Below, one piece after another: positions 15,072 through 32,202 of a DNA stretch of 64,000 nucleotides; the stretch's first letter is position 1, and every line of letters begins with the position of its first letter. The notes below the pieces were generated by a model, which saw nothing but the letters and a program-made list of their open reading frames with translations, ran no database searches and was not told where the DNA came from. The translations under genes were made by a program, and so were the position numbers. Source of the DNA: Candidatus Curtissbacteria bacterium (GTDB lineage: Bacteria; Patescibacteriota; Microgenomatia; Curtissbacterales; GWA2-41-24); contig JANLHP010000022.1 in NCBI GenBank assembly GCA_024654445.1, positions 15,332 through 79,331 on the forward strand. Direction: 5' to 3'.

Positions 15072-16371
15072 TCTCCTTCTGGATAATTGTCTCGCATAAC
15101 CTTTTCAGATTTAAAGAATAATTCCTTGTATCTTCCGAAAGATAATAGTTGAGATTGCTATATTTACTCTTAGAATTAACCTTTGCATTAGAAATGTTGG
15201 GATTATTAAATATGTACTTCAACTTTTCTATTTTGTCGACAATTATGACATTTGGTAACTGTTCGATTTTCCGGAAATGTTCATAATATTTAAAAGCGTT
15301 TTTCGGCGATGTTAGATGAATTCCATCATCGTAAGTAATAACAAAAACTTTTTTATTAAAAATTAGCCCTTCAATCAGCATTGTAGATAGGGGACATATC
15401 ATAAACTCCATATTAGAAAGAAGCCTTGGATAATAATCCAAGCCCGGGATAATATTGTTCTGCTCCCTTTTGTAATAAGCTCTGGCATCAGTGTCTAAAA
15501 TAACATTTTTAAAATCCCAATCAAAAAATGTATCAAAAGATTTTCGTGGATGTCTCCAAGGATGTGGCCTGTAAACGATCTTAATTTGATCCTCTAAATG
15601 ACTTATTATTCCATCAAGCTCCCTCAAAGTTGAAATCTCGTCAAAAGGAATTGCATTGCCCGAAAAAAGAGCAAAGCGGAATGGGTAAGGAGAAGGTAGC
15701 TTTTCACTCCTTTGCCGAAAATAGCTTTCAAATCTCGGCGTCCCAAGAACAAAGACTCTCTCGCGGTCGACGTTATGAATTCTCATAGTATGTTCGACCG
15801 ACTGTTTTCCCCAAACAGCCAAGTAATCCGGACGTCTTGTAAATATCGTCTTGCTGCAAAGATTGTCCCAATTATCAATTAAAAGGCATACCGGAATTTG
15901 ATACTTTTTTGCAATCCTAATAAACTCAAAAGTGACACCTTCAAATCCGCTTGATGGGATTAAAATTAAGGATGGTTTAGTTTTTTCAATTAACTCTTCC
16001 AATTCTTTATCTTTAGTACCAAGAAAAACGTAAAGTTTAAATAAGTCATAAATAACAGGAAATGAGAGCAGTGAGTATTTAATCTTAAGAAATTTAGGCA
16101 GCCTCATAAAACGGAACTTAAAAGTTAAACTCCTATTTCCGTATCTTCGGGTATTTGTGTTGAATAAGTGAAAATGTAGTCTTGCCTTTTCTTTTGAGTA
16201 AGAGAATTCTAAAACTCTATCCCTTTTAGCCTGAGGAATTTGCTTTCGTGTCAAATCCTTATTTAAAAGAAAAGTGCAGTCGGCTTTAATTTCAGAAAGG
16301 CAATTAGAAGTTATATAGTTTCTATAATACTCGTTCGTATTTATAACAAAGACAATGTTATTTTTAGACAT
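15055..16371 (-). CDS. GT-B-like protein with an HP motif, paralogous to 5177..6709; putative CMP-ulosonate transferase or TagF-like transferase.
   Basis: RPHPWRHP and GTPRFE motifs. It is embedded in the Pse-type operon between the aminotransferase and the 4,6-dehydratase. Confidence 0.35.
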   Translation of the reverse strand: MSKNNIVFVINTNEYYRNYITSNCLSEIKADCTFLLNKDLTRKQIPQAKRDRVLEFSYSKEKARLHFHLFNTNTRRYGNRSLTFKFRFMRLPKFLKIKYSLLSFPVIYDLFKLYVFLGTKDKELEELIEKTKPSLILIPSSGFEGVTFEFIRIAKKYQIPVCLLIDNWDNLCSKTIFTRRPDYLAVWGKQSVEHTMRIHNVDRERVFVLGTPRFESYFRQRSEKLPSPYPFRFALFSGNAIPFDEISTLRELDGIISHLEDQIKIVYRPHPWRHPRKSFDTFFDWDFKNVILDTDARAYYKREQNNIIPGLDYYPRLLSNMEFMICPLSTMLIEGLIFNKKVFVITYDDGIHLTSPKNAFKYYEHFRKIEQLPNVIIVDKIEKLKYIFNNPNISNAKVNSKSKYSNLNYYLSEDTRNYSLNLKRLCETIIQKENEKTA

Positions 16372-16380: not shown

Positions 16381-17376
16381 TTAATAACCTGCGCCATCTG
16401 AAGCTATATCAGAAATAAGTGTTTTAATCTTCTCCGCGCTAAGCCATTTGTTATTGTTGTCGCTGCTATACATAAATCCGTCAACTGGCTTCTTTTTAAC
16501 TTTACTGCTACCGGCCCACCAGTCGAATTCCGGTTCAATTAAAAAATAGTTCTTAAATTCCCTTGTATGTCTTGATTCGTCAAAACTAATCAACGCTTCG
16601 TGGAGCTTTTCACCGGGTCTTATTCCAACAATTCTAATTTTAGAATTTGGAGAAATAGCCTTTGCAACTTCAGTAATCCTGACACTTGGAATTTTTGGTA
16701 CGAATATCTCTCCGCCCTTCATTTTTCCAAGTGTATTTATAACCAGCTCAACCCCCTGCTCCAAGGTAATCCAGAATCTTGTCATTCTAATGTCGGTTAT
16801 CGTAATGTGATTATTTTTCGCTTGAGAAATAAAAACAGGAACAACACTACCACGCGAGCCCATTACATTTCCGTACCTTACAACACTAAACTTCGTACTC
16901 TTTTCCCCTCCATAAGAATTCGCTTGAATGAAAATTTTCTCGGCAACCATTTTAGTGGCACCGTATAAGTTTACTGGAGAAACTGCTTTATCTGAAGAAA
17001 TTAAAATAACTTTTGAAACATTTTCATCAAGCGAAGCCTCAATGACATTCTCACTCCCCATAATGTTTGTGTGAATTGCTTCAAAAGGGTTATACTCTAA
17101 AAGAGGCACCTGCTTAAGGGCCGCGGCGTGTATTACATAATCTACGCCAACAATTGCTCGCTTTAATCTTCTTAAGTCCCTTACATCTCCCAATAAAAAT
17201 CTTAACCTTTTGTCTCCCTGATATTTCGCCATAAGTGCGTGTTGCTTAAATTCATCCCTGGAATAAATTCTAATAACACCCTTAAAAGTTTTTTGCGAAA
17301 GTAGATGAGCGATAAATGCTTTTCCAAATGATCCAGTGCCGCCTGTTAGAAGAATTGTTTGTTTTGTTAAATTCAT
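16381..17376 (-). CDS. pseB: UDP-N-acetylglucosamine 4,6-dehydratase (PseB/FlaA1/CapD family).
   Basis: LLTGGTGSFGKAF Rossmann motif and YGATKMVAEK catalytic YxxxK. Length and domain order match PseB/FlaA1. Confidence 0.8.
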   Translation of the reverse strand: MNLTKQTILLTGGTGSFGKAFIAHLLSQKTFKGVIRIYSRDEFKQHALMAKYQGDKRLRFLLGDVRDLRRLKRAIVGVDYVIHAAALKQVPLLEYNPFEAIHTNIMGSENVIEASLDENVSKVILISSDKAVSPVNLYGATKMVAEKIFIQANSYGGEKSTKFSVVRYGNVMGSRGSVVPVFISQAKNNHITITDIRMTRFWITLEQGVELVINTLGKMKGGEIFVPKIPSVRITEVAKAISPNSKIRIVGIRPGEKLHEALISFDESRHTREFKNYFLIEPEFDWWAGSSKVKKKPVDGFMYSSDNNNKWLSAEKIKTLISDIASDGAGY

Positions 17377-17460
17377 GAAGTCAAAAGTCTCCGTATTTTA
17401 TGCGAATTGTTGCCACATTTACAAGGTGATCACATAAAGTACAGCTCAGAAGTTACTTTA

Positions 17461-17701
17461 TTATGAGCGAGAATTCCTCGGCCTTTAAAGCCGAGGATGA
17501 GAGTGAGCGAATATCAAAATATGCACTGCCCTGTGGTCCTTATCAAGTCAGACTCGACTCCAGGCTTAATCGTGGACGAAAATCCGCATGTAGTTTATCG
17601 ACTTACCAGAAGACCACGGCTTCCAGCCGTGGATGAATGGCAGGAGGCGATTCAGACCAAGCGAAGCTTGAATTGAGTTGAAAGAGGACCACGGGCTATG
17701 C
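17461..17701 (-). repeat. Intergenic repeat element, copy B (inverted, 17461-17600), plus an additional forward core-like segment at 17681-17701.
   Basis: The reverse complement of 17461-17600 aligns nearly base-for-base with copy C, including the perfect hairpin CCTCGGCC-TTTAAA-GGCCGAGG. Confidence 0.8.
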
Positions 17702-17711
17702 CTGTGGGAAT

Positions 17712-19394
17712 CTATTTTATCTTTAAAACATCAAAATATGGACCGGGTCTATCCACCAAAAATAGCGGAAAGTTATAAGGCGCGTCAAAGAAAGCTTCAG
17801 GTATTTTGTAATTATAAACAATTTCTCCGGTTGGAGAAAAATGAACAATTAATTCGAAATCAAAACTACTTGAGTTAAATAATAATCGATCATAAGAGCC
17901 AAGATAAGAATCGACTACATATTTGACAGGGTAAACAGACGATGCCCTTTGAAGATCTTCCTCTTTTGATCGTGTTTGAAATTCGTTTATATAAACCACA
18001 TTTCTAACGTTTGGCGGATATGTTTCACCCGTTAACTCCGCCGCCCGCGAGTAGAAACCTGGCCGGAATTCTCTAATTGGGGCTGACGCTCTAGCATTAG
18101 GAACGTGACCAAAATTTCTTCTAATTGTATACGCAATTGGAACTTCACTCCTTATGTTTTTATCAACCCATTCATGGACTTGAGAAAAAGTAGGTGTTTT
18201 TAAAATAAGAATATTCCAGTAAATGGAGTTAAGTGAAGCAAGCAAAAGGAGGATAGAGGCAAATATAACCGATGTAAAATTCAAATGAAGCACACGCGAT
18301 AAAACGAAACCCGAAAAAATAGGTAAAAGGGAAAAACTAATCAAAAAGTATCTAACAAAAGGAGGAAAGACTGTCACCACTAAAAGAAAGTTTAAGAAAA
18401 TAAATAAAAAAAACGGCAAATATTCCCGCCGCCAATTAGTTCTTTTGGTGAAAAATAACATTGCGCTTCCCACGATAATACCGTCGGTTTTAATTAAGTC
18501 TCCAAAAACCTTTTGCACGTTTCCTTCATTTATATAAAACCGCAAAACGTCAAATAAATTGTCCGATGCGTGGGGAAGTTTAATAAGTCCGACATTAGGA
18601 TTTCCCGGGGAAACTATTTTAAAAAAATCTCCACCAACACTCAGAAAATTAAAAACAAGAATTAAAAAAGCCCAAAGTAGCAAAGCTGATAAATTAGTAA
18701 GAATAACTTTTTTCTCAAAAAGATTTCTACTTGAAATTAACCTAAGAAGAATGATCAAAATAATAACCATGCCGCTAATCTGATGAAATCCAAATGAGAT
18801 TGCAGAAAAGATGAAGGCAAAAGTTACATTCTTGAATTCCGAATCATGCTTCTTAATACTTTTATAAGCAAACAACACGGAAAGGAGTGCGAAGAAAATA
18901 GCCGGGGACCAAGCCCTCGCTAAATGAGAAACATGAACTAAATTAAATGAAATCGCAAAAAGCGCGCTTGCCCACAAAGCGGCTTTTTTACTTTCAAAAA
19001 TTTCAACAGTTAGCTTGTAAATAACAAGCACACTTAAAACCCCAAAAAGTGCGGAAATTACGCGAGGAATAAACGTCAGGTAACCTTCTTGCGTTACGAG
19101 TAAAAATTCAAAATCGCGGATGTTGTGTACTTTTCCAGATAAAAACATAACAACAAAGGAAAGAAGAATAAATGGAATTTGCGCGTAAGATCCTAAAGGG
19201 CCGTAGTTGCCAATGCTAAAAATAGATTTTGTGGCAAGCATATTTAACGCGCTCAAATGGTAAATCGCCTCGTCGTTTGACATGTAAAGAATTGGGAATC
19301 CAACCGTAAGGTTATTGAAGCGGAGTAAAAACCCCATCAAAAGTATTAGAAGCAAAAAATATTTAGGAGATATATTTCTTAAGAAACTCATCAA
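17712..19394 (-). CDS. GT-C-fold membrane glycosyltransferase (GT39/GT83, PMT/ArnT-like).
   Basis: An acidic motif in the first loop (YMSNDEAIY), 11-13 TM helices, and a C-terminal periplasmic domain. Confidence 0.6.
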   Translation of the reverse strand: MMSFLRNISPKYFLLLILLMGFLLRFNNLTVGFPILYMSNDEAIYHLSALNMLATKSIFSIGNYGPLGSYAQIPFILLSFVVMFLSGKVHNIRDFEFLLVTQEGYLTFIPRVISALFGVLSVLVIYKLTVEIFESKKAALWASALFAISFNLVHVSHLARAWSPAIFFALLSVLFAYKSIKKHDSEFKNVTFAFIFSAISFGFHQISGMVIILIILLRLISSRNLFEKKVILTNLSALLLWAFLILVFNFLSVGGDFFKIVSPGNPNVGLIKLPHASDNLFDVLRFYINEGNVQKVFGDLIKTDGIIVGSAMLFFTKRTNWRREYLPFFLFIFLNFLLVVTVFPPFVRYFLISFSLLPIFSGFVLSRVLHLNFTSVIFASILLLLASLNSIYWNILILKTPTFSQVHEWVDKNIRSEVPIAYTIRRNFGHVPNARASAPIREFRPGFYSRAAELTGETYPPNVRNVVYINEFQTRSKEEDLQRASSVYPVKYVVDSYLGSYDRLLFNSSSFDFELIVHFSPTGEIVYNYKIPEAFFDAPYNFPLFLVDRPGPYFDVLKIK

Positions 19395-20664
19395 ATTTTA
19401 AAACGACATATTTTAACTGAATCCGATCGATACCGGGATATACACCTATCCAAAAACCAGAATCCATAACGGCATTGCTGTTTGCAAGATCACCTATTAC
19501 TCTGTATTTTATCTTTGAATAAGCAGGATGTTTTAATAAATTGCCGGCAAAAAGACTTCGAGTTTCAATCATATTTGCTTGTAAGAAATTCACAATATCG
19601 AGTCTGGCAAAAGGCGCTTCCTTTCGAACAGTCAGCATAAAACCAAACCAGCAAGGAGCAGACTTTTCCAGCCATTGTGGAAAAACAAAAAACTCCTCGT
19701 ACCTTTTTAACTTTCTATATAGATAATCAAAATTACTTCTTCTTTTTTCTATAAACTTAGGCAGTTTGTCCAATTGAGCTAGACCGATAGCAGCTTGAAT
19801 GTCTGTAGCTTTTAAGTTGTAGCCAATATGAGAATATGTATACTTATGATCGTAGCCATAAGGCAACTTGCCTAACTGAAAGGAAAATCTTCGTCCACAA
19901 CGGTTGTCCTGTCCTGTCCTGCACCAACAGTCACGACCCCATTCACAAAAAGAATTGACAAGAACGTAAAGGTCCGGATTACTAGTGACAACTGCTCCTC
20001 CTTCACCCATTGTAATCTGGTGAGCAGGATAAAAGGAAAAAGTAGCAAGATCTCCAAAGGTCGAAACGTACTTCCCCTTATACTTTGACCCCAACGCATC
20101 GCAACAGTCCTCAATAATCCAAAGATTATTCTTTTTAGCAATAGAGATAACCTTGTCAATATCAAAAGGATTACCAAGCGTATGAGCAATCATAATCGCT
20201 TTAGTTTTTTTCGAAACCGCTTTCTCAATAAGCTCTGGGACAGCATTCCTACTTTGCAAATCGATGTCTACAAAAACTGGAATTGCTCCAAACTGAATGA
20301 TTGGGTTTACTGTTGTTGGAAAAGAGCAAGCAACTGTAATCACCTCGTCGCCCTTCCTGATACGTCTTGCGCCTAGCTTAGGGGAAGTTAGAGCGCTAAA
20401 AGCCGCTAAGTTAGCGCTGGAGCCGCTATTGGTGATAGTTACATATCGAACACCCAAAAATTTCGCAAGCTTTTTAGAAAACTCTTCCGCGAAGTGCCCC
20501 TCAGTCAACCAAAACTCGAGTGATGCCAGAACTGCCTTTTCAATTTCTTTCTCGTCAAAAACCCTGCCCGACACCTTAACTTGGGTTACACCGGGAATGA
20601 AAGCTTTTTTAAAATGAAATTTAGAAAAATAATCAGAAACGAGCGACTCAATTTTCCTTTGCAT
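19363..20664 (-). CDS. rfbH: CDP-6-deoxy-D-xylo-4-hexulose-3-dehydrase (E1, RfbH/DdhC-type PMP/Fe-S enzyme).
   Basis: A DegT fold, but His replaces the PLP Lys (FSFYPAHQITMGEGG), and it carries the C-x1-C-x7-C cluster motif (CWCRTGQDNRC) diagnostic of E1. Confidence 0.8.
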   Translation of the reverse strand: MQRKIESLVSDYFSKFHFKKAFIPGVTQVKVSGRVFDEKEIEKAVLASLEFWLTEGHFAEEFSKKLAKFLGVRYVTITNSGSSANLAAFSALTSPKLGARRIRKGDEVITVACSFPTTVNPIIQFGAIPVFVDIDLQSRNAVPELIEKAVSKKTKAIMIAHTLGNPFDIDKVISIAKKNNLWIIEDCCDALGSKYKGKYVSTFGDLATFSFYPAHQITMGEGGAVVTSNPDLYVLVNSFCEWGRDCWCRTGQDNRCGRRFSFQLGKLPYGYDHKYTYSHIGYNLKATDIQAAIGLAQLDKLPKFIEKRRSNFDYLYRKLKRYEEFFVFPQWLEKSAPCWFGFMLTVRKEAPFARLDIVNFLQANMIETRSLFAGNLLKHPAYSKIKYRVIGDLANSNAVMDSGFWIGVYPGIDRIQLKYVVLKFDEFLKKYIS

Positions 20665-20706
20665 TTTCTTCTTAAGGCCATTATTATAGCAATACTGCTC
20701 TCGTGC

Positions 20707-21651
20707 ATGAAAAAATCCAAAAAGTTAATAAGTATTGTTATTCCACTCTTTAACGAAGAACAAAACGTAAAAGAACTCCACAGACGATTTAAGCAACTAT
20801 TTACCAGAGAAAAAAAGTATGATTTCGAAATCATAGCTGTCGAGCATGGGTCAACAGATTCTACATTTGAAAAACTAAACAAGTTACGTCAAATCGATAA
20901 AAGAGTAAAGATTCTTCAACTCTCCAAAAATTTTGGTAACGCGGATGCGGGAATTGTCGCTGGTCTTCACTTTGCAAACGGTGACGCCGTTGTCATTACA
21001 ACGGCCGATTTACAGGATCCGCCGGAAGTTATTCCAAAATTTCTGAGAAAATGGGAGCAAGGCTATGAGATTGTTTACGGAGTAATTAAACAAAGGGCAG
21101 ATACTAATTTCTCCAGAAAGTTTTTGTCAATTTTATTTTATAAGATACTCAATCTATCCACAGGAAATATATTTCCTGAAAACGTTTCAGACTTCAGATT
21201 GATTGATAAAAAAGTCACCGAAACCGTTAAAGGAATGCCCGAACGAAACAAGTTTTTAAGAGGAATCATAATTTGGACAGGTTTTTCTCAAACTGGAGTT
21301 AATTACGAAAGGGCAACGAGATTCGCGGGGGAGTCAAAAGCCGACTTCCTAACAGTTTTGAAAGTTGCGGCAAACGGAATTTTTTCATTTTCTTACGCAC
21401 CGTTAAAATTGGTTACATTTCTTGGTTTTTGCCTGTCGCTAGTTTCTTTTTTGTTAATCTTGTACCAAATAAGCCTATTTTTAATTGTTGGTAGGGGGCA
21501 GCCCGGCGTCACAACGATAGTCGTTCTGATGGGATTTTTATTCGGGATGCTATTTTTAATATTGGGCGTGATAGGGGAGTACTTATCCAGGATTTATGAC
21601 GAAGTAAAACAGCGTCCGACTTTTATTGTTAGGAAAAAAATCGGTCTTTAA
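20707..21651 (+). CDS. GT2 polyprenyl-phosphate sugar synthase (DPM1/GtrB/ArnC-like) with C-terminal TM helices. The ATG at 20707 is preferred over the track start at 20581.
   Basis: ISIVIPLFNEE, DAD/TADLQD (DXD) and two C-terminal TM segments. It is transcribed divergently from rfbH. Confidence 0.75.
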   Translation: MKKSKKLISIVIPLFNEEQNVKELHRRFKQLFTREKKYDFEIIAVEHGSTDSTFEKLNKLRQIDKRVKILQLSKNFGNADAGIVAGLHFANGDAVVITTADLQDPPEVIPKFLRKWEQGYEIVYGVIKQRADTNFSRKFLSILFYKILNLSTGNIFPENVSDFRLIDKKVTETVKGMPERNKFLRGIIIWTGFSQTGVNYERATRFAGESKADFLTVLKVAANGIFSFSYAPLKLVTFLGFCLSLVSFLLILYQISLFLIVGRGQPGVTTIVVLMGFLFGMLFLILGVIGEYLSRIYDEVKQRPTFIVRKKIGL

Positions 21652-22535
21652 AAATAATCCTTGATCAAATCTTTGTTTTTAATCTTGTCTTTACGCTTAA
21701 AGTACCATTCATACAGCATGTTTATTGCTTCATTAATGTCTGTAAACTTTATATCCCTAAACTCATTTCTGAGTCGCAAATTGGAAGCCGTATATTCGGG
21801 GGATAAGCCAGTCTTACGTACTCTTATTGGAACTTCGCCTTTTGAGATCGAATTAATTTTTTTGGCAACAGTTATCAAGTCTGTACCCTTCCCAGATGTT
21901 ATGTTGTAAGTTTTATATTTGAGTTTAGTTTTCAAAAATAGCTCTAAAATTCTGACTAGATCATCGATATACAGATAGTCCATAATAATATTCTGATTAA
22001 CATCAATCGGCATATTTAAAATACTTTTGCATATAGAATTAGAAATAAACCTAATTCTGTAGTCTTCATATTTCCCGAAAACCCCAAACAATCTCAAATT
22101 CACAAACTTGTTAGAATCTTCTACATACTTTGCGCAAATATATTTGTACAACCCCCAATTACTCGCGGGAACTAGTTTTCCAAAATCGACTTCACCAGCG
22201 CGCCTGATAGGTTTCTCTTTACCGTATTCAATTCCCGAGCCAAAGTAAAAAAAACGTTTAAAATACTTATCCTGTGATGCAAGGTTAAAAAACATCCTGA
22301 GACTATCCAGCGCAAACTCTCTCGAGTCACCAGTCATTCTATTACCGCCAATTATTGCTGTGTGCAAAACCGCATCAAACGGCCCGTATTTAGAAAAATA
22401 TTTATTTACCAACTCGAAATCTAAAAGATTAAGTTGCTTGTGAGAAGGTGAATAGAAATTATATTTGCCACCAAGACCTCCCAAAACATTTTTCCCAATA
22501 AACCCGCTGCCGCCACTCAAAAAAATTTTCCGCAT
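21648..22535 (-). CDS. NAD(P)-dependent epimerase/dehydratase-family reductase (candidate side-chain or 4-keto reductase, YerF-like by context).
   Basis: GGSGFIGKNV Rossmann motif and YxxxK (YKYICAK). Confidence 0.65.
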   Translation of the reverse strand: MRKIFLSGGSGFIGKNVLGGLGGKYNFYSPSHKQLNLLDFELVNKYFSKYGPFDAVLHTAIIGGNRMTGDSREFALDSLRMFFNLASQDKYFKRFFYFGSGIEYGKEKPIRRAGEVDFGKLVPASNWGLYKYICAKYVEDSNKFVNLRLFGVFGKYEDYRIRFISNSICKSILNMPIDVNQNIIMDYLYIDDLVRILELFLKTKLKYKTYNITSGKGTDLITVAKKINSISKGEVPIRVRKTGLSPEYTASNLRLRNEFRDIKFTDINEAINMLYEWYFKRKDKIKNKDLIKDYF

Positions 22536-22546
22536 AACGCTAGTTT

Positions 22547-24331
22547 TTAAACCTTCTTTGAAGAAGACATATTTTGGAGAAGCTCGTCTTTTTCTAAGAA
22601 AGGAAAAAGATCTTCATAAGGTCTTGACACAAAAGAACCGTCTGGCCTTCTTTCAGAAGCGACCCTCGGTATGATTAATTGCCAATGTGGCGACATAACT
22701 TCGCATAAAACAGGATCATCTCCCTCGAGCGCCATTTTTATCTTTTCATCTACTGCAGTAGTCGACGGAATCTTAACAAAACGCAAGCCATAAGCTTGCG
22801 CAATTTTTTCTAAGTCTGGACACAACAAACCACTCTTCGGACTCTCACCCATAAACCTCCCGCCTAAATGCGTTTTTTGCGTATGCCTAATTAAAAGATA
22901 ACCGCCGTTATTTATGACAAATATTTTGATTGGCAATTTATTTTGCTTGACTGTCGCCAGCTCCTGAATATTCATCTGCAAACTACCGTCACCCGTAATG
23001 ATTATGGTTCTCTTGCCGCTACCTATGCATGCTCCAATTCCGGCGGGCCAATAACCCATTGTCGAAATTCCGCCTGTCGTTAAAAATCTTTGACCAGACT
23101 TGATCATCCATGTTTGGGAAGCAACGTGGAAAATAGAACTTGTGTCAACAACTACGACATCCCCACGAGAAGCTAAGTCCGAAAGCTTCTCTGTAAAATA
23201 ATATGAGTTTACCAGCTTTTGTTTTTTGTAACTTGGTAAAACCATAGGATATTTTTTTCGCCACGCCTGACATGTTTTTCGCCACGCCTCGTGTTTTCCA
23301 GGCTCGTTAAATTTGCCAATTTGCAAAAACTCGCTCAAAAATTTCTTGGCATCAGTGTTTACCGTAATGTCTATATCTGCCCCTGGCTTTTCCAGTTCTT
23401 TTTTATCAACATCAACTGAAACTTTAAAAGCATTTCTTCCCCAGTCACCTGCATCGTATCCCACAATGCCGGTATCCAACCTCGCCCCAATAGAAATTAT
23501 AAAATCAGCATTCTGTACCGCAAAATTTGCCGCTCGATCGGCGTAAAGACCTGGCCTCCCAACAAAAAGTGGATTATCGCTTTCGATAAGGTCGATACCC
23601 AACCTTGTGGTTACTACCGGCACACCAAGCTTTTCATATAAAATTCTCAATTCTTCCTCAGCCCCTGCTATTCTGACCCCCTGCCCAACAAGTAAAAGGG
23701 GCCTTTTGCTTTGGCTGAAAACGGAGTAAATCTTTTTAAGCTCAGAGCTTGTGACTTGAGATATCATATTGGTGCTTTGTTCGTATTGCTTGAGTAGTTT
23801 TACAGGTACTTCCATGCGTTGAATGTCGAGAGGAACTTCAATCCAGACAGGCCCTTTTCTTCCTGACGTTGCTGCCAGGTAAGCTTCCTCCAGATTATAT
23901 CTGACATCTGAAGGATCATCTAACGTTTTAAAGTATTTGGTAACGTTCTTAACAATCGGTTCTATATTTATTCCCTGAAGGCCTAATTGTCTAATTTTAG
24001 TTTTTTGCATATAGGAAACATTGGCAAGCGAAGACTGGCCGGAGATGACCATCATTGGTGCAGAATCGACCCAGGCGCCAACAACGCCGTTTAATGCGTT
24101 TATCGCGCCAGGCCCGGCTGTAACCATAGCAACTCCAAGTTTACCGGTAATACGACCGTACGCTTCGGCTGCCATGCCGGCTGCCTGTTCATGATGGACA
24201 AAAATCCCATCAATCTTTTTATTTTTATACACGGCATCATTTAAGAACATAGCCTGACCGCCCGTTATCATAAAAACGTGTTTAACTAGTAAATCTGACA
24301 AGAATTTTACGATATAATCGGCAACCGTCAT
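22547..24331 (-). CDS. Thiamine-diphosphate-dependent enzyme of the acetolactate-synthase large-subunit family (YerE-like candidate).
   Basis: Three-domain ALS architecture with the TPP-binding GDGS...NNGGY motif region (ITGDGSLQMNIQEL...NNGGY). Confidence 0.75.
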   Translation of the reverse strand: MTVADYIVKFLSDLLVKHVFMITGGQAMFLNDAVYKNKKIDGIFVHHEQAAGMAAEAYGRITGKLGVAMVTAGPGAINALNGVVGAWVDSAPMMVISGQSSLANVSYMQKTKIRQLGLQGINIEPIVKNVTKYFKTLDDPSDVRYNLEEAYLAATSGRKGPVWIEVPLDIQRMEVPVKLLKQYEQSTNMISQVTSSELKKIYSVFSQSKRPLLLVGQGVRIAGAEEELRILYEKLGVPVVTTRLGIDLIESDNPLFVGRPGLYADRAANFAVQNADFIISIGARLDTGIVGYDAGDWGRNAFKVSVDVDKKELEKPGADIDITVNTDAKKFLSEFLQIGKFNEPGKHEAWRKTCQAWRKKYPMVLPSYKKQKLVNSYYFTEKLSDLASRGDVVVVDTSSIFHVASQTWMIKSGQRFLTTGGISTMGYWPAGIGACIGSGKRTIIITGDGSLQMNIQELATVKQNKLPIKIFVINNGGYLLIRHTQKTHLGGRFMGESPKSGLLCPDLEKIAQAYGLRFVKIPSTTAVDEKIKMALEGDDPVLCEVMSPHWQLIIPRVASERRPDGSFVSRPYEDLFPFLEKDELLQNMSSSKKV

Positions 24332-24351
24332 TATTTCTTTTTTCGAACCTG

Positions 24352-24384
24352 CTTGCCTCGCTCCGCTTGCGAAGCGGGTCGAGA
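24352..24384. terminator. GC-rich hairpin (CCGCTT-GCGA-AGCGG) in the short gap between the ALS-like and DmpG-like genes; a possible attenuator or terminator.
   Basis: Perfect 6-bp stem flanked by A/T runs. Both flanking genes are on the minus strand. Confidence 0.25.
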
Positions 24385-24398
24385 AAAAACGAACTTTT

Positions 24399-25469
24399 TC
24401 AAATTAGTGCCTCGATCAAATCTATTTGTTTTTTCAATACCCTTTTTTGCTTAAGAAGCATTGCGACCTCAATAATGATATCTTCTTGCCCCGCAACTAC
24501 CTTACGTTTTCCAAGCTCAATTAGTATATCCCTTGGGTCAACCCCAAACCTTTCAGCTACCCTTTTTGCGTGTGGCGCAAAGCCCGAAAAAACCCCAGCT
24601 AAGCCGCTTGTTAGGGAAATCGAACTAATTATTTGAGGCTTTTTCATAATTTTTGCAATTATGTCCTCGCTGTTGTCCATTAACTTATAAAGGTCGAGAT
24701 CTATGGGATAACCCATTTTGAAAAGCACTGCAACCAAGACTTCCAATTGACAGTTTCCTGCTCCGGCGCCGAGTCCCCGCGAACATGTATCAAGAATTTT
24801 AGCGCCAGCTAGAAGAGCCGTCACGGTATTCCATACAGCAAGTGAAAGATTATTGTGTGCATGAAATCCGACGTCTATTTTAAGACCGCTAGCTAAAGTT
24901 TTTACCTTCTCGCTAACGTCGCCCGGCAGATAAGCCCCCGCCGAATCCATAAGCAAAACGCCAGATGCACCATACTCCTGCATCAAAAGGGCTTGCGCAA
25001 GGAGTTCTTTGGCGCTGATCATGTGCGACATCATTAAAACTCCATAAACAGTAATTCCACGTCCACAGATGTATTCAATATGTTGCCTCGTAACTGTAGC
25101 TTCCGTGCAGTGGCAGGCAACCATCATTACGTCAACTCCAACAGAAATGGCAGGTTCAACATTTTCCTTGATCGTTCCAAACCCTGGTATCAAAAAAGCG
25201 CCGAGTTTTGTATTTTTGAGTTGCTTGCGTGCGACCCTTAACATTTCATTATCCGAAAGAAGCGAGATACCCAACTGAAGACTCGAGGCGCCCAAACCGT
25301 TTCCGTGGCCAACCATCAAAATTGGTATTTTTGCGTCTTCCGCACCTTTTGAATAATTCGAAATGTCTTCTGCCGTAAACTGGTGAGAAACAGCATGCGA
25401 ACCATCTCTTAGTGTTGAATCTACAATAATCGGGCTAAGTTTCTTTTTGTCAGATCTTGCGTTTGGCAT
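24399..25469 (-). CDS. 4-hydroxy-2-oxovalerate aldolase-like class II pyruvate aldolase (DmpG/BphI family).
   Basis: N-terminal DSTLRDGSHA, HxH metal site (GFHAHNN), and the C-terminal communication domain typical of DmpG. Confidence 0.85.
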   Translation of the reverse strand: MPNARSDKKKLSPIIVDSTLRDGSHAVSHQFTAEDISNYSKGAEDAKIPILMVGHGNGLGASSLQLGISLLSDNEMLRVARKQLKNTKLGAFLIPGFGTIKENVEPAISVGVDVMMVACHCTEATVTRQHIEYICGRGITVYGVLMMSHMISAKELLAQALLMQEYGASGVLLMDSAGAYLPGDVSEKVKTLASGLKIDVGFHAHNNLSLAVWNTVTALLAGAKILDTCSRGLGAGAGNCQLEVLVAVLFKMGYPIDLDLYKLMDNSEDIIAKIMKKPQIISSISLTSGLAGVFSGFAPHAKRVAERFGVDPRDILIELGKRKVVAGQEDIIIEVAMLLKQKRVLKKQIDLIEALI

Positions 25470-26316
25470 ATTCTTCGGCGACTAAAACAGCAGCGCTGTT
25501 TATAATATCCAAATTACCCGCATAAGTTGGTAAAAAATCTCCTCTCCCTAAAACCTCGTTCATAAACGTAAGACGGCCATTTTCAGTTACTGGCTTCATC
25601 GTTAGTTTGTATCCGGGTACGTACTTCCTTATTTCGAAAATAAATTTATTAAGTTCTTTCTCGATTAATTTTATTTTCGGTTTTGCGACTTTTGCAAAAA
25701 TCGTGTTATGCATCACAATCGGCGGCTCGGAAGGGTTAAGGATAATAATCGCTTTCGCGCCTTTAACATGTGTAAATTTTTGGATCGCGTCGCTTGTCGT
25801 TTGCGTATATTCATCAATATTATTTCTAGTGCCAATTCCAGCGGATCTTGACGCAATACTGGCAACAATTTCTACATATTCAATTTCCGGATGTATCTTC
25901 ATTAGGGCGGTAACCAATGGGGTAGTAGCTTGTCCTCCACACGTGACCATATTTACGTTTTTTTCCCTCAGACCTTCTTCTAAATTTAAAATCGGAATAC
26001 ACATTTTGCCTACCCTTGAAGGTGTCATATCGATCGTGAATTTACCGAGCTTTGCAAGAATTGGTGCGTGAACTTTATGTGCCTCCGCGCTTGTTGCATC
26101 AAAAACTATCTCACAAAAGTCAGGATTTTTAACAATCGAGTTAATCGAGTCGTAAGAAGTATTAACTCCCATCGCCTTTGCTCTCTTTATTCCTTCGGAC
26201 ATCATATTGTGTCCGGCAAAAATCCCACAATCCAAAAGTTTGGACCTCCTAATCTTCATTAAAAGATCTGATCCGATGTTTCCTGTACCAATTATTCCGA
26301 CCTTAATCCGCTTACT
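25450..26316 (-). CDS. Acetaldehyde dehydrogenase (acylating), DmpF/MhpF family.
   Basis: VGIIGTGNIGSDL NAD-binding motif and catalytic Cys region (MVTCGGQAT). Its start overlaps the DmpG-like gene, as in dmpFG operons. Confidence 0.85.
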   Translation of the reverse strand, partial: SKRIKVGIIGTGNIGSDLLMKIRRSKLLDCGIFAGHNMMSEGIKRAKAMGVNTSYDSINSIVKNPDFCEIVFDATSAEAHKVHAPILAKLGKFTIDMTPSRVGKMCIPILNLEEGLREKNVNMVTCGGQATTPLVTALMKIHPEIEYVEIVASIASRSAGIGTRNNIDEYTQTTSDAIQKFTHVKGAKAIIILNPSEPPIVMHNTIFAKVAKPKIKLIEKELNKFIFEIRKYVPGYKLTMKPVTENGRLTFMNEVLGRGDFLPTYAGNLDIINSAAVLVAEEYAKRKI

Positions 26317-26365
26317 CATCGACTTTGTAAAACTCGGGAAAACTATTGTACACCTCAAAAGGAAA

Positions 26366-27322
26366 CTAATGAAGATCGAAATACTCTCGATACCATGTTA
26401 ATATGTCTCCCATTGAAGTTTTAAAGTTGTGATTTGGCTTCCAGCCAAAAGCTTTTCTTATTTTATTAAAATTTACAGATTGGGTCGGTATTTCGTTTAC
26501 AGCGGTAGAAAGAATCCTATATTTGATTTTCTCACCAAGAATGTTTTCGACACGCTTTACAACGTCAATAACAGAAAGGTTTTCAAGGGAAGAAACATTA
26601 AAAGCTTCTCCTTGTACCTTTGATATATTGTTCGCAAGAGTCAATGTGGCGTCAACAACGTCTTTTACGTAAACATAGTCACGAATATACTTTCCATTGC
26701 TTCTTATTTTTAACTCTTTATTTTTAACAACAGACTCCATTATTCCCGGAATTAGTCTGTTGAAATTTAAATCACCCTCGCCGTAGACATTCCCAAAACG
26801 CGTGACAACAACCGGCAAGTTGTAAGTTTTAAAATAAGACCTTGCAATTAAATCTGCTGAGGACTTAGACACTTCATAAGGATGATCGCCCGAGATGGGA
26901 TTTTTCTCACTTACCCTCGGCAGCTTGCCGTATGCCTTGTCTGTTGACGTAAACAAGACGCCCTCCACCTTTCCATACAGCCTGCAAGACTCAAGAACAT
27001 TTGTGGTACCAACAACATTCGAAATAACAGTTTGCCGGGGGTTATGAAAGGCGGCATCAACTGTAGTTACGGCAGCAAGATGAAAAACCAAATCGATTTC
27101 ATTTTTGGTGATGACGGAATTTATATGATCAAAATTCCCAATATCACAATATTCAAAAACTACTTTCTCGTCAAGCTTTTGTTGAAGGAAATAAGATTTT
27201 GGGTGTATCAGCAAATCTGTTACAAAAACATTGCACCCCAGATTCACCAACCGTTCTACTAAATGTCCTCCGTAAAAACCGCAGCCTCCGGTGACTAATA
27301 CATTTTTCCCCCTTAGCGCCAT
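26366..27322 (-). CDS. rfbG: CDP-glucose 4,6-dehydratase (RfbG/DdhB-like SDR).
   Basis: VLVTGGCGFYGGHL Rossmann motif and YEVSKSSAD catalytic motif. It is adjacent to rfbF. Confidence 0.7.
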   Translation of the reverse strand: MALRGKNVLVTGGCGFYGGHLVERLVNLGCNVFVTDLLIHPKSYFLQQKLDEKVVFEYCDIGNFDHINSVITKNEIDLVFHLAAVTTVDAAFHNPRQTVISNVVGTTNVLESCRLYGKVEGVLFTSTDKAYGKLPRVSEKNPISGDHPYEVSKSSADLIARSYFKTYNLPVVVTRFGNVYGEGDLNFNRLIPGIMESVVKNKELKIRSNGKYIRDYVYVKDVVDATLTLANNISKVQGEAFNVSSLENLSVIDVVKRVENILGEKIKYRILSTAVNEIPTQSVNFNKIRKAFGWKPNHNFKTSMGDILTWYREYFDLH

Positions 27323-28083
27323 ATTTTCCAGGCAGGATTTTCCCTCCACATCTCGTTTAAATCGTTCATGTCCTGGTAAGTATCCATCGCGTGGAAAAAT
27401 CCGCGATGCTCATACAAAGCTAATTGTCTCTTACTAACAAGTGGCTCAAAAACTTCTTCAATCATCGAATCTGGTTTTATGTAGTTGAACACACCCTTTT
27501 TAAAAACCATAAACCCTCCGTTGATCAATTGTCTTATCTTGGCCTTTTTCTCAAAATCGCTAACTAGGCCGTCTCCGTTGGCATCCAGACCTCCATATTT
27601 GAGTTGCGGATAAACACCAGTCACGGTCCCAAGTGTTTTTTTACGCATATGAAATTTAACTAAATCGCGGATGTTGATGTCGGAAAGCCCGTCACCATAA
27701 GTCACCATAAAATAATTCCCATCTATATAATTCTTAACTCTTCTTAACCTCTCACCTGTCTTCGATTCAAGGCCAGTGTCGACAAAGGTAATATTCATTT
27801 TCTCCAGCAAACCGTTCTTGTGCTTTACCTTATGCGTTGAAGTATTTATCGTGAAGTCGTTATCGTAGTATTTCTTATTTATAAAATAATCTTTTACTAA
27901 GTTACCTTTGTATCCCAGGGCAATGATAAAATCATTAAACCCCCAGTGTGAGTACATTTTCAAAATGTGCCAGAGAATTGGCCTTCCGCCGACTTCGACC
28001 ATAGGCTTTGGTTTAAATTCTGTTTCCTCTTTTAACCTGTAACCTATGCCTCCGCAAAGAATAACCGTTTTAATTTTTGCCAT
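27313..28083 (-). CDS. rfbF: Glucose-1-phosphate cytidylyltransferase.
   Basis: ILCGGIGYRLKEETEFKPKPMVEVGGRPILWHI is the classic RfbF N-terminal signature. Confidence 0.9.
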   Translation of the reverse strand: MAKIKTVILCGGIGYRLKEETEFKPKPMVEVGGRPILWHILKMYSHWGFNDFIIALGYKGNLVKDYFINKKYYDNDFTINTSTHKVKHKNGLLEKMNITFVDTGLESKTGERLRRVKNYIDGNYFMVTYGDGLSDINIRDLVKFHMRKKTLGTVTGVYPQLKYGGLDANGDGLVSDFEKKAKIRQLINGGFMVFKKGVFNYIKPDSMIEEVFEPLVSKRQLALYEHRGFFHAMDTYQDMNDLNEMWRENPAWKIWR

Positions 28084-30007
28084 TCTTGTCTAAAACTTTT
28101 TTAACTAATTTCGCTATCGAGCCAGAATCTAATTGGTGGTGTTTCAAAACATCCAAATTTTGGCCGCACACGGGAACTTCTTTCAAGCCAAGTGAAATTA
28201 ACTTTTCAGGCCGCACCTTAAGTTTTAAAATCGCAGAAGCAATCATGTCCCCCTGACCCATTTTCAAATAGTGATTATCTATTGTAAAAATTACCGGGAA
28301 TTTTGCAACAACCTTTTTCAGCCAGTTGCTATCAATCTCATTTAGCCAGGGTAAATTATACACGCCAACAGACAAATTTTGAGCAACAACGCTACGGGCA
28401 GCTTTATATGCTTCACTAAGCATCACAGGACCATAAGAAATAATAGCGACATCGTGGCCCTTCAAAATCTCAACTCCACGACCTTTTTGGAGATGATAAT
28501 TTGCACGTAGACTGTAAGGAATTTGACAAGGGACGCTGACGAGCCTTATATAGGTGCTTCCGCTATTTTTTTCGACCGCCCACCTTATGGCGATTCGAGC
28601 CTCTTGCTCACACGAAGGTTCAATGATTGTAAGATTAGGTATGCTTCCGAGAGTTGAAATATCTCTCACACTTTGATGGGAGTGACCGGGACCACCGGGA
28701 ACAAGACCAGCAAGCGACCCAACATAAATAATTTTTGTATTTTCCGTCGCATTGTTGTAAATTTGCTCATTCGGTCTTGTAGATAAAAAACAAGCAAAAG
28801 AGTGAACAACGGGCAACTTCCCTGACAACGCAAGTCCTCCGGCCATAGAAGCCATATGTTGTTCCGCGATTCCGCACTCAATATACCTTTGCGGGAATTT
28901 ATTTTTAAACGGTATAAGTCCGGTGTCTAAAACCAGATCCGCGTCCATGGCTATGATGTTTTTATTTCTTCTTGAAATTTTTACAAGTTCATCCCCATAC
29001 GCTGTAACTAACCTTTGTGGTTTTTCAAAAACAGTTCTTACGGGCAGATCTGTTGTGTCAAATTTAATTGCCTTCAGCCCAAATTTCTCCAGTTTCAAAT
29101 TTATTCTTTTTGCGATTTCCTTTTGCGCACTCAAATAAATTTCAATAGCAGGCGCCCCGCTGTGAAATTTGTAATATCCGTCTTCTCCCACCTTTTCCAT
29201 AAACGAAACACCCTTGCCTTTTACCGTATCGGCAATTAGGATTTGTGGTTTATTCTTGACCTTTGCAAATTTATCAAACACTCTCTTAAGCTGGCCAAAA
29301 TCATGACCGCTGCATCTTTCAACTTCCCAACCAAACGCTTTTAATTTACCTTCTAGGTCTCCAAGATCACTAACGTCTCTAACCCAGGTATCGGATTGGA
29401 TTTTATTGTGGTCGACAATTACCGTGATCTCATTAAATTTTCCGTTTACGGCAGGTTGAAGCGATTCCCAAAAAGCGCCTTCTTGCAATTCTCCATCGCC
29501 ACACATAACGTAAACCTTCCCGGATTTACCGTCCATTCTCCTTGCCTTCACCATTCCCATCGCTTTCGAAACACCCATCCCCAAAGAACCAGTATTTGCA
29601 GCAATATAAGGCGTATTCACATCTGGATGACCTGGAAGGCCATCAACCTCCCTTAATTTATGGATAAAATTAAAAGAAATTCGTTCACTGCCAATCAATA
29701 TACTGTATAGAGCAGGAACGTCGTGACCTTTCGAGGAAAAATAAATATCAAAATTGTTCCTCTGCCATTCGTTTGGAAACTTAAGTTGATGAAGCCACAA
29801 CCAAGTTGCTATATCTATTGAGCTAAAACTGGTTCCGACGTGCCCAGATCCAGCTCTCTCTATCATATAAAGAGTATTTATTCTAAAAATATCAGAAAGT
29901 ATCTGGCAAAAATGTTTGGGATTTTTTACTCGCGATTTTATTCGCTTAATTTCACCTATTGGAGTATATGATAATTTTCTATTATATTTCGAATCCTTTT
30001 TTGGCAT
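28070..30007 (-). CDS. Transketolase-like TPP enzyme (N- and C-terminal halves fused).
   Basis: N-terminal TPP-binding domain (GSGHVGTSFS, GDGELQEG) plus a Pyr domain and the transketolase C-terminal domain. Confidence 0.8.
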   Translation of the reverse strand: MPKKDSKYNRKLSYTPIGEIKRIKSRVKNPKHFCQILSDIFRINTLYMIERAGSGHVGTSFSSIDIATWLWLHQLKFPNEWQRNNFDIYFSSKGHDVPALYSILIGSERISFNFIHKLREVDGLPGHPDVNTPYIAANTGSLGMGVSKAMGMVKARRMDGKSGKVYVMCGDGELQEGAFWESLQPAVNGKFNEITVIVDHNKIQSDTWVRDVSDLGDLEGKLKAFGWEVERCSGHDFGQLKRVFDKFAKVKNKPQILIADTVKGKGVSFMEKVGEDGYYKFHSGAPAIEIYLSAQKEIAKRINLKLEKFGLKAIKFDTTDLPVRTVFEKPQRLVTAYGDELVKISRRNKNIIAMDADLVLDTGLIPFKNKFPQRYIECGIAEQHMASMAGGLALSGKLPVVHSFACFLSTRPNEQIYNNATENTKIIYVGSLAGLVPGGPGHSHQSVRDISTLGSIPNLTIIEPSCEQEARIAIRWAVEKNSGSTYIRLVSVPCQIPYSLRANYHLQKGRGVEILKGHDVAIISYGPVMLSEAYKAARSVVAQNLSVGVYNLPWLNEIDSNWLKKVVAKFPVIFTIDNHYLKMGQGDMIASAILKLKVRPEKLISLGLKEVPVCGQNLDVLKHHQLDSGSIAKLVKKVLDKNGKN

Positions 30008-30745
30008 TTACAAGTTATTTTTTAAAACTAGCTCTGCGAGCTGAAAATCAATTTCATTATCTATATCAACAGAACTGTTCTCATCAAGCATCACAAACCT
30101 TATGCGTTTACCAGTTAACAATTTATCTTTCATTAAAGTTTCGTATCTTACGGCAATAACGTCTACATGGGCAAACGCCTGCGGCAAGAGTTGTCTGGCA
30201 ATATTAGAAGGCTCATTAAAACCTGTTAATTCTTTCGGCACAAAAGGTTTTAATTCCACGCCGTCAACACGCCAGAGCTTGTAAGGATGTTTAGGGGCAG
30301 TTTTAATAGTTCTTGCGGAAGTTGCTTTTTTGTCATTTAACAAAAGCTCGATACATGCGTCAATAGAGTCTGTCCTACAAAGTGGAGCAGTAGGGGGGAG
30401 ACGCAAAATAATATTAGGGATCCAACCCTCATTTTTTTCAAGCCATCGAACCGCATGAGTAAGATAGGTAATATCATCCGCCCGATCGCCGGCGTACTTC
30501 TTCGGTCTTAAAAATGGGACCTCGGCCCCATAATTTTTCCCAATTTTTGCGTACTTATGACTATCAGTAGAAAGTACCAAGCGTGTAATATACTTTGATC
30601 TTTTAGCGGCCTCAATAATCCAAGCCATAAGCGGTTTTCCCAAAAGTGGTTTAATGTTTTTATTCGGAATACTTCTCGACCCGCTTCTGGCGCCGACAAC
30701 TCCAAGCACTTTTAAATTTTTGCCTTTAGATATTTTCTGGGTCAT
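30008..30745 (-). CDS. CMP-ulosonic acid synthetase (acylneuraminate cytidylyltransferase/KdsB family).
   Basis: GVVGARSGSRSIPNKNIKPLLGKPLMAW P-loop-like motif of NeuA/KdsB. Confidence 0.8.
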   Translation of the reverse strand: MTQKISKGKNLKVLGVVGARSGSRSIPNKNIKPLLGKPLMAWIIEAAKRSKYITRLVLSTDSHKYAKIGKNYGAEVPFLRPKKYAGDRADDITYLTHAVRWLEKNEGWIPNIILRLPPTAPLCRTDSIDACIELLLNDKKATSARTIKTAPKHPYKLWRVDGVELKPFVPKELTGFNEPSNIARQLLPQAFAHVDVIAVRYETLMKDKLLTGKRIRFVMLDENSSVDIDNEIDFQLAELVLKNNL

Positions 30746-32189: not shown

Positions 32190-32202
32190 ACTTTAAAAAA
32201 GA

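Follow-up and report, generated by a model that had tools for sequence, protein, structure and literature searches.

Erwiniose (3,6,8-trideoxy-4-C-(1-hydroxyethyl)-octose) is a branched octose that can be described as a 3,6-dideoxyhexose whose C4 bears a 1,3-dihydroxybutyl branch (PMC9306805). Its gene cluster was characterized in Pectobacterium atrosepticum SCRI1043, where an enzyme that depends on thiamine diphosphate (ThDP), namely ErwE (WP_011093010), a reductase (ErwF, WP_011093011), a BphJ-like acetaldehyde dehydrogenase (ErwJ, WP_011093012) and a BphI-like aldolase (ErwI, WP_011093013) are encoded next to the genes that provide CDP-4-keto-3,6-dideoxyglucose (Steitz et al. 2022, PMC9306805). 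In purified form, ErwE joins 4-hydroxy-2-oxopentanoate to a ketone surrogate, with a preference for the (R)-acid, and does not do so with pyruvate (PMC9306805). Here, we analyzed a stretch of 64,000 nt (hereafter, the window) from a metagenome-assembled genome (MAG) of Candidatus Curtissbacteria (Candidate Phyla Radiation, CPR/Patescibacteria). We consider it likely that positions 17712–28083 of the window form a self-contained cassette for an erwiniose-type CDP-3,6-dideoxyhexose with an acyl-derived branch at C4, and for the delivery of this sugar to the cell surface.

Other described pathways rely on a similar chemistry. In Yersinia pseudotuberculosis, the yersiniose A pathway (AscA-D/DdhA-D, YerE and YerF) uses the same acceptor as the one predicted here; its ThDP enzyme attaches an acyl anion equivalent to C4, before a ketoreductase acts. 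YerE forms a C2 branch from pyruvate, with neither an aldolase nor a dehydrogenase associated with it, whereas a DmpFG pair is invariably attached to the enzyme studied here. The caryophyllose and gastriose clusters (MMAR_2331-2333 in Mycobacterium marinum and MyGE/MygI/MygF in M. gastri) and a cluster of Rhodopseudomonas palustris CGA009 share a unifying scheme, in which an aldolase supplies a hydroxylated 2-oxo acid and a YerE-like enzyme acts, together with a reductase, on a 3,6-dideoxy-4-ketohexose (PMC9306805). These clusters differ from the window by their HpcH/citrate-lyase aldolases and C6-C7 donors, and no DmpF-type dehydrogenase has been reported in them. More than 200 YerE-like gene clusters were found in a 2024 survey, as it is cited in a review (PMC12247030).

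A candidate erwiniose-type cassette

We assigned gene families using Pfam and NCBIfam/TIGRFAM models with their curated cut-offs, together with sequence comparison to the PDB, for the window open reading frames (ORFs) of at least 120 amino acids. The cassette spans ~10.4 kb and extends from an RfbF-like gene to a gene for a membrane glycosyltransferase of the GT-C type; its genes lie on the minus strand except where stated. The first gene encodes an RfbF-like glucose-1-phosphate cytidylyltransferase (27313–28083; TIGR02623, 277 bits against a cut-off of 300, aligned over 1-255/255) that is predicted to make CDP-glucose. It is followed by an extended short-chain dehydrogenase/reductase (SDR) of the NDP-hexose 4,6-dehydratase type (26366–27349; Pfam Epimerase/GDP_Man_Dehyd), which is a putative CDP-glucose 4,6-dehydratase ("rfbG"). 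The next genes encode a DmpF/ErwJ-like acylating acetaldehyde dehydrogenase (25450–26358; TIGR03215, 374 bits against a cut-off of 282) and a DmpG/ErwI-like class II pyruvate aldolase (24399–25469; TIGR03217, 390 bits against a cut-off of 286). A YerE/ErwE-like ThDP-dependent carboligase follows (22547–24331); this acetolactate synthase (ALS)-like protein presents three TPP domains and scores under every NCBIfam cut-off for acetohydroxyacid synthase (AHAS). Eleven nucleotides 3' of this gene begins a second extended SDR (21648–22535; Pfam Epimerase), an ErwF/YerF-like NAD(P)H reductase predicted to reduce the C1' ketone of the branch.

The remaining genes of the cassette encode E1 and two glycosyltransferases. 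A polyprenyl-phosphate glycosyltransferase of family 2 (GT2; ArnC/PgfS/GtrB-like, Pfam Glycos_transf_2) is found on the plus strand between the SDR and E1 genes (20707–21651, within ORF 20581-21651), and its probable ATG at 20707 lies 42 nt from the divergent start of E1. E1 (RfbH/DdhC/AscC; 19363–20664; NF011936, 677 bits against a cut-off of 423) is the pyridoxamine phosphate- and [2Fe-2S]-dependent CDP-4-keto-6-deoxyglucose 3-dehydrase. The last gene encodes the GT-C enzyme (PMT_2/ArnT-like; 17712–19394; Pfam PMT_2/PMT) and is located beyond the region covered by a preliminary description of this DNA. That description had named a cytidylyltransferase, a 4,6-dehydratase, E1, DmpF and DmpG, an ALS-like enzyme, an SDR and a transketolase, and the family models recovered all of them; DmpF and DmpG (24399–26358) are indeed placed between the ALS-like gene and rfbG, with both models above cut-off. 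It had also grouped these genes into a single minus-strand operon. This view has to be abandoned because the plus-strand GT2 gene separates the SDR from E1, and the genes do not form one uninterrupted operon. A scan of positions 17000–35800 returned 60 promoter-like sites (42.7±6.5 expected) and terminators at chance level, and did not resolve the transcription units.

Based on these assignments, we propose the following pathway. The RfbF-like enzyme would produce CDP-glucose, which the 4,6-dehydratase would convert to CDP-4-keto-6-deoxyglucose; E1 and a reductase not encoded here would then remove the 3-hydroxyl and yield CDP-4-keto-3,6-dideoxyglucose. The DmpF-like enzyme would generate acetaldehyde from acetyl-CoA, and the DmpG-like enzyme would condense it with pyruvate into 4-hydroxy-2-oxopentanoate, probably of 4R configuration. 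The YerE/ErwE-like enzyme would decarboxylate this acid and couple the C4 fragment so formed with the CDP-sugar at its C4 carbonyl. Reduction of the branch ketone by the SDR would give a 4-C-(1,3-dihydroxybutyl)-3,6-dideoxyhexose, i.e., an erwiniose-type octose, which GT2 would load onto polyprenyl phosphate and GT-C would transfer to an extracytoplasmic acceptor. The reductase partner of E1 and the sugar acceptor are presumed elements of this scheme. What we observe at the sequence level are the enzyme families, their catalytic residues and their conserved synteny, and it is from these that we infer all the substrates and products of these proteins.

The erwiniose cluster presents the same enzyme set and the same chemical logic, a match established from published gene descriptions. 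It differs from the window in several respects: our host is a CPR MAG without lipopolysaccharide (LPS), the 4,6-dehydratase is non-canonical and no E3 reductase is found in the window. The core mechanism envisioned in the preliminary description, i.e., a 4-hydroxy-2-oxo acid made by DmpFG, attached at C4 by the ALS-like enzyme and reduced by the SDR, matches the erwiniose scheme and agrees with the synteny, the YerE-like affinity and the aldolase signature presented below. The same description knew of no pathway with this gene combination; the erwiniose route was published in 2022 (PMC9306805), and the cluster thus defines no new pathway. The predicted sugar is also of the erwiniose type, instead of the caryophyllose or shewanellose type that was initially suggested.

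The DmpF/DmpG pair and the stereochemistry of the aldolase

The DmpF of the window aligns with the DmpF structure 1nvm_B at 246 bits and conserves the catalytic cysteine motif TCGGQAT. Its DmpG conserves the catalytic residues Arg17, Asp18, His21, His200 and His202 and is ~41% identical to the catabolic DmpG structures 1nvm_A and 8ih7, a distance comparable to the 43% reported between ErwI and BphI (PMC9306805). The pair shares with the catabolic DmpFG/BphIJ/HsaFG enzymes their fold, catalytic residues, DmpG communication domain and two-gene adjacency, and presumably catalyzes the same reaction, which would here proceed in the synthetic direction. It differs from them by its gene order relative to the partner genes and by the lack of meta-cleavage genes nearby: no gene of aromatic catabolism (hydratase, dioxygenase or hydrolase) was found in the 64-kb window. 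This agrees with the preliminary description, which saw no catabolic neighbors and did not consider the pair a meta-cleavage module; the identity among aldolases of the glycan-linked set (52–73%) also exceeds the identity to catabolic DmpG.

We further compared the active site of these aldolases. In BphI, the substrate C4 is flanked by Tyr290 and Leu87; selectivity for 4S is lost upon the Y290F change and becomes inverted to 4R with either double change, L87W/Y290F or L87N/Y290F (PMC3962088). We observed that the position of Tyr290 is occupied by Phe in all 76 glycan-linked aldolases, including that of the window, and that the position of Leu87 is occupied by Phe in 54 of them (the window among them) and by Tyr in the other 22, whereas the catabolic structures 1nvm and 8ih7 present Leu and Tyr at BphI positions 87 and 290. 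The catalytic Arg, Asp and three His are invariant across the 76 sequences. Since the Phe at position 290 and the Phe or Tyr at position 87 mirror the engineered 4R variants of BphI, the product of the window aldolase is probably (4R)-4-hydroxy-2-oxopentanoate. Catabolic and glycan-linked aldolases are thus distinguished by Leu87/Tyr290 (4S) and by Phe or Tyr combined with Phe (4R predicted), respectively. By its sequence, the Phe/Phe aldolase is a natural counterpart of engineered 4R BphI, and it fits the preference of ErwE for the (R)-donor.

The branch might alternatively be built from another aldehyde or acyl-CoA, for instance from propionyl-CoA through propanal and 4-hydroxy-2-oxohexanoate, or the sugar might differ by its stereochemistry or tailoring, which would yield an analogue of erwiniose (a C5 branch or an epimer). 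ErwE accepts 4-hydroxy-2-oxobutanoate and 4-hydroxy-2-oxohexanoate in vitro and converts the hexanoate to a higher extent than the pentanoate (76% and 49% conversion, respectively; PMC9306805); for this reason, the length of the branch is not fixed by homology. The pocket of the window aldolase also shows three changes relative to DmpG (L88F, L90I and Y291F), and tailoring differs among relatives, with an aminotransferase and a GNAT enzyme in locus L007 and FkbM in locus L054. Against such an analogue, the position of BphI Leu89, whose reduction to Ala controls the acceptance of longer aldehydes (PMC3962088), is occupied by Ile, of similar size, in 72 of the 76 glycan-linked aldolases. In addition, the DmpF passes an equivalog cut-off for acetaldehyde dehydrogenase, and an SDR is present in the window as in the erwiniose cluster. 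We regard an analogue as unlikely and retain an erwiniose-type branch.

A YerE-like ThDP carboligase

The ThDP enzyme scored 357 bits with TIGR00118 (cut-off of 538) and was far below the cut-off of the remaining AHAS models. Its best match in the PDB was JanthE of Janthinobacterium sp. HH01 (8rph; also 8rpi and 8rpj), with 375 bits and ~34% identity, whereas 5ahk, which we take to be PpYerE, and the AHAS of plants, yeast and bacteria reached 238 bits at most. The alignment with JanthE covers the C-terminal tail, whereas those with AHAS stop near residue 559. JanthE belongs to the YerE-like ThDP enzymes that accept ketones, and it takes 4-hydroxy-2-oxovalerate (PMC12188165). Its ThDP motif is CDG, whereas the window protein presents the canonical GDG.

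The window enzyme is 52–69% identical to members of its own DmpFG-linked clade and ~30–32% identical to IlvB genes from a plasmid collection. In a simple neighbor-joining tree, built without bootstrap and from reference sequences copied by hand from printed alignments, the DmpFG-linked clade grouped with JanthE and with the clade of a second ThDP enzyme of the window (described below), apart from 5ahk and AHAS. These results indicate that the enzyme groups, by sequence, with the YerE-like subclass and not with AHAS/IlvB, and they bear out the preliminary description, which had likened it to YerE. An identity as biosynthetic AHAS (IlvB/IlvG/IlvI) was considered and rejected: the protein is below the curated cut-offs, and neither ilvN nor any other branched-chain amino-acid gene is found near its gene, whose neighbors are sugar genes.

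Conservation of the cassette

We analyzed the annotated neighborhoods of homologs (loci L001-L004) and scanned species-representative genomes with the ThDP protein, retaining the best 80 loci, whose ThDP proteins are 52–68% identical to that of the window. Seventy loci had 2.3 kb or more of sequence upstream of the ThDP gene; in every one of them, DmpF and DmpG were found directly upstream of it and on the same strand. Because this synteny is without exception (70/70), the DmpF-DmpG-ThDP triad represents a functional unit and not a coincidence. Among the 48 loci with at least 6 kb on both sides, E1 (identity of at least 45%) was present within 10 kb in 39 and a cytidylyltransferase homolog was present beside the cassette in 38. 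Triad-bearing loci span Patescibacteria, Acidobacteriota, Gammaproteobacteria MAGs, Clostridia, Elusimicrobia, Omnitrophota and Planctomycetota, and the hosts detected by the scan also include Phycisphaerae and Victivallaceae; Pectobacterium is absent from the best 80 loci.

The order cytidylyltransferase-4,6-dehydratase-DmpF-DmpG-ThDP-SDR, antisense GT2 and E1 is kept in a MAG of Acidoferrales and in a Patescibacteria contig of 722 kb from groundwater, and a PMT_2 gene follows E1 in some of the conserved cassettes. The gene-by-gene comparison is consistent with this picture: a 4,6-dehydratase-type SDR occupies the matching position in L001 and L003, the SDR following the ThDP gene is 47% and 51% identical in these two loci, the GT2 found at the matching antisense position in L003 is 67% identical, and GT-C homologs (44–49% identity) adjoin E1 in L003, L006 and L007.

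The conservation of the triad bears on a simpler scheme of the yersiniose type, in which pyruvate would serve the ThDP enzyme as the source of a C2 acetyl branch, later reduced by the SDR, and DmpFG would only supply or balance pyruvate and acetyl-CoA or extend the branch at a later stage. The window does present the YerE/YerF logic and the same acceptor pathway. However, the invariable coupling of DmpFG to the ThDP clade would be unexpected for a metabolic bystander, and the active-site change of the aldolases, which is found across the clade, matches the enantiomer used by ErwE. ErwE itself, which comes from the one characterized cluster with DmpFG-type genes, rejects pyruvate (PMC9306805). 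A plain yersiniose-type pathway appears quite improbable, and we favor the attachment of a C4 unit made by DmpFG.

The genes found downstream of the triad are more variable. A reductase that always follows the ThDP gene was among the features that we considered and rejected, since an SDR is found directly after this gene in only 11 of 74 related loci, which indicates that the tailoring step varies. In L007 (Patescibacteria MAG; 11826–13588), the ThDP gene is followed by a DegT aminotransferase and a GNAT acetyltransferase, and in L054 (Roseburia sp. CAG:303; 11772–13843) by an FkbM methyltransferase and then an SDR. This variation points to a family of related branched sugars, and the genes of L007 and L054 suggest that the C4-branched sugar has amino/N-acetyl and methylated forms, respectively. 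The triad and E1 are also found in cultured or gut-associated Clostridia: Lachnotalea glycerini DSM 28816 (L068), Lachnospiraceae bacterium ZAX-1 (L050) and Roseburia sp. CAG:303. In Lachnotalea, E1-GtrA-GT2-large ORF-GT2 lie beside DmpF-DmpG-ThDP-SDR; the neighborhood thus comprises GtrA, two GT2 and a 652-aa ORF without family, along with Glf and phosphoglucomutase.

Precursor genes and points against the proposed pathway

Among the precursor genes, E1 is clearly supported. It aligns with the E1 of Y. pseudotuberculosis (3bcx/3bb8), from the yersiniose A pathway, at 538 bits and 55.6% identity. Its His215 aligns with His220 of the Yersinia enzyme, at the position of the pyridoxal phosphate-binding lysine, and Cys188/246/248/256 align with Cys193/251/253/261, which form the C...CxCx7C pattern. 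These four cysteines of the Yersinia enzyme are reported to be the ligands of the [2Fe-2S] cluster (Agnihotri et al. 2004). The conserved His and four Cys, together with the NF011936 score, confirm that this is a bona fide E1 3-dehydrase, as the preliminary description had claimed. The claim about rfbG stands only in part. A 4,6-dehydratase-type SDR is present, but it is not a canonical RfbG: it scores below the cut-offs of both the dTDP (TIGR01181, 187 bits) and the CDP (TIGR02622, 163 bits) models, and its best PDB matches are dTDP-glucose 4,6-dehydratases (141 bits), the CDP-glucose 4,6-dehydratase 1rkx reaching only 95 bits. Its start codon is uncertain, as the ORF starts with GTG and overlaps rfbF.

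Several points weigh against our interpretation of the cassette. The 4,6-dehydratase departs, by sequence, from canonical CDP-glucose dehydratases. No E3 reductase (AscD/DdhD; Fer2/FAD/NAD) was found among the window ORFs of at least 120 amino acids, and none was found in the annotated neighborhoods L001-L004. Given the antisense GT2, E1 and GT-C may belong to separate transcripts. The scarcity of an SDR directly after the ThDP gene in related loci and the broad donor range of ErwE in vitro count in the same direction. The clade of the window could also represent a parallel recruitment, considering that its likeness to the ErwE set is established from gene descriptions.

Proposed delivery of the sugar

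The GT2 of the cassette scored 238 bits with the PgfS model and 154 bits with the ArnC-type model of NCBIfam, both under cut-off. GT2 and GT-C genes, or sets of GtrA, GT2 and a large membrane protein, recur beside the cassette (L003, L006, L007 and Lachnotalea). This pattern suggests that a lipid carrier first receives the sugar, which is then passed on to an extracytoplasmic acceptor, as in ArnC/ArnT, GtrA/GtrB/GtrV and PgfS-type systems: the window pairs an ArnC/PgfS-type GT2 with a GT-C (PMT_2), and the Lachnotalea version includes GtrA. Two differences from these systems should be mentioned. The donor would here be a CDP-linked branched dideoxy sugar, and no flippase was identified in the window cassette. 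Delivery also appears to differ from that of Pectobacterium, where an O-antigen glycosyltransferase is involved instead of a polyprenyl-phosphate GT2 and a GT-C. In monoderm hosts, the sugar would probably be delivered by such a lipid-carrier/GT-C system.

The transketolase and the flanking NeuB module

Nearly every ORF of the 64-kb window is related to glycan biosynthesis, with the minus strand predominating. The window contains two NeuB genes, PseB/PseC/PseF-like genes, GDP-heptose-type activation genes and a Wzm/Wzt exporter, as well as several GT2 and GT-C enzymes and methyltransferases. Directly upstream of the cassette lies a minus-strand module (28070–34571) with the order NeuB, KdsC-like HAD, SDR, aldehyde dehydrogenase, CMP-transferase (PseF-like) and full-length transketolase (28070–30007, minus strand). 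It is unusual to find a transketolase together with an aldehyde dehydrogenase in a module of the nonulosonate/ulosonate type. The order of this module is kept in two other Curtissbacteria contigs (L085 and L087), whose proteins are 57–72% identical to those of the window where full-length; the HAD of the L085 module is truncated. In both contigs, the transketolase (64–65% identical) is followed directly by genes for a 438-aa protein, a PseB-like protein and DegT, with no branched-sugar cassette; in the window, these three genes lie beyond the GT-C gene. Since the block continues without the cassette in these contigs, positions 17712–28083 behave as a segment inserted into a nonulosonate-type locus that already existed.

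The largest non-coding gap of the region (335 nt, 17377–17711) is found 3' of the GT-C gene. It begins with a GC-rich hairpin (17689–17707) with no clear T-run, and it may represent the 3' boundary of the inserted cassette. Around the cassette, we found only short repeats expected by chance and no compositional island or break. The 438-aa ORF (15055–16371, minus strand) has no Pfam match and is 54% identical to its counterparts next to PseB-like and DegT in L085 and L087; its order relative to PseB is swapped between the window and these contigs. A partly conserved module is also found in L086 (Sungiibacteriota), where the transketolase is accompanied by Aldedh and CTP_transf_3 and a KDPG-type aldolase.

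The preliminary description had included the transketolase, which lies within the region it covered, in the sugar pathway. The gene is present and full-length, but we rejected it as a member of the cassette and assigned it to the adjacent module. A participating transketolase would add or supply a glycolaldehyde unit and lead to a larger sugar, of the size of caryophyllose or shewanellose. In favor of this possibility, its stop codon overlaps the start of the RfbF-like gene by 14 nt, split transketolases have been proposed in the literature to branch keto-sugars, and in L084 (Magasanikbacteria) a split transketolase (270 aa + 280 aa; 2041–3765) lies directly upstream of DmpF-DmpG-ThDP. However, the same NeuB-to-transketolase block occurs without the cassette in L085 and L087, homologs of the fused transketolase are found throughout CPR (56–65% identity) and are absent from the other cassette-related loci, and published caryophyllose clusters use HpcH-type aldolases instead of a transketolase (PMC9306805). 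We find such a role highly improbable for the window gene, and an erwiniose-type product made without it remains our preferred reading. L084 is the only related locus where a gene of the transketolase family touches the triad; transketolases may be linked to the triad elsewhere, as they are in L084, where the split enzyme is distinct from the fused transketolase of the window.

A fortuitous co-location of a housekeeping IlvB and a remnant of catabolic DmpFG, unrelated to the sugar genes, is barely credible: DmpG and DmpF do pass the equivalog cut-offs of the catabolic enzymes, but the ThDP enzyme falls under all AHAS cut-offs with no ilvN or branched-chain genes nearby and only ~30% identity to IlvB, no hydratase or dioxygenase gene occurs in the 64 kb, the Tyr290/Leu87 signature of catabolic DmpG/BphI is absent and the triad is syntenic in 70 of 70 loci.

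A second, triple-ThDP cassette and other genes of the window

A second cassette with ThDP enzymes is found on the minus strand at 44159–50674 and continues to 36392. It comprises a 4,6-dehydratase (49685–50674), proteins resembling the alpha (48716–49684) and beta (47683–48810) subunits of pyruvate dehydrogenase E1, a second YerE/JanthE-like enzyme (45962–47683; 38% identical to the first and 322 bits to 8rph) and the N-terminal (45096–45965) and C-terminal (44159–45094) halves of a split transketolase, all on the minus strand. Further along are an aldo-keto reductase, a 257-aa ORF without family, SDRs, an FkbM methyltransferase, an RmlC-like protein, a GHMP kinase and an NTP-transferase/HAD fusion. 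All of these proteins remain under the NCBIfam cut-offs. The cassette adjoins the GDP-heptose-type activation genes of the window.

The block formed by the E1-alpha-like, E1-beta-like, ThDP, split transketolase (N and C), aldo-keto reductase, unknown, SDR and RmlC genes is conserved in a contig of 1.08 Mb (L091). In a genome of 8 Mb (L092), it is conserved from the ThDP gene onward, and only an E1-beta-like gene is found upstream. The L091 block also includes a DmpF-DmpG pair, which bears the Phe/Phe signature and shows 64% identity to that of the window. A metagenome scan with the second ThDP enzyme yielded three weak loci only. To our knowledge, no pathway has been described for this combination of genes.

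These observations allow a broader interpretation, which we put forward tentatively and at low confidence. The first cassette might be a portable module within a surface-glycan locus of ~60 kb in an ultra-small monoderm CPR bacterium and might, by way of a lipid carrier and GT-C, place an erwiniose-like branched octose or a novel analogue on an acceptor other than LPS. DmpFG may also feed the second YerE-like enzyme, whose triple-ThDP cassette would then build an undescribed higher-carbon branched sugar.

Two other loci of the window were noted. A protein of 550 aa fuses GNAT and NeuB (6706–8358), and a HisF-like/HisH-like pair is found beside the second CMP-transferase, an SDR and an aldo-keto reductase (9398–10820). 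These genes suggest that the window encodes another pathway for a nonulosonic acid, which might carry an acetamidino-type modification.

Implications

Our results show that the correct pathway could be inferred from the raw sequence alone. They also provide a criterion for annotation: the combination of Phe290 with Phe or Tyr87 (BphI numbering) separates glycan-linked aldolases from catabolic DmpG/BphI, and the glycan-linked enzymes are possible natural templates for stereo-complementary aldolases. The triple-ThDP cassette (44159–50674) constitutes a more novel lead than the erwiniose-type cassette. The DmpF-DmpG-ThDP triad is an invariant unit found in at least seven phyla, including CPR as well as cultured gut and anaerobic Clostridia. 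Given this broad distribution, erwiniose-like sugars probably occur much more widely than one would expect from the only LPS structure known.

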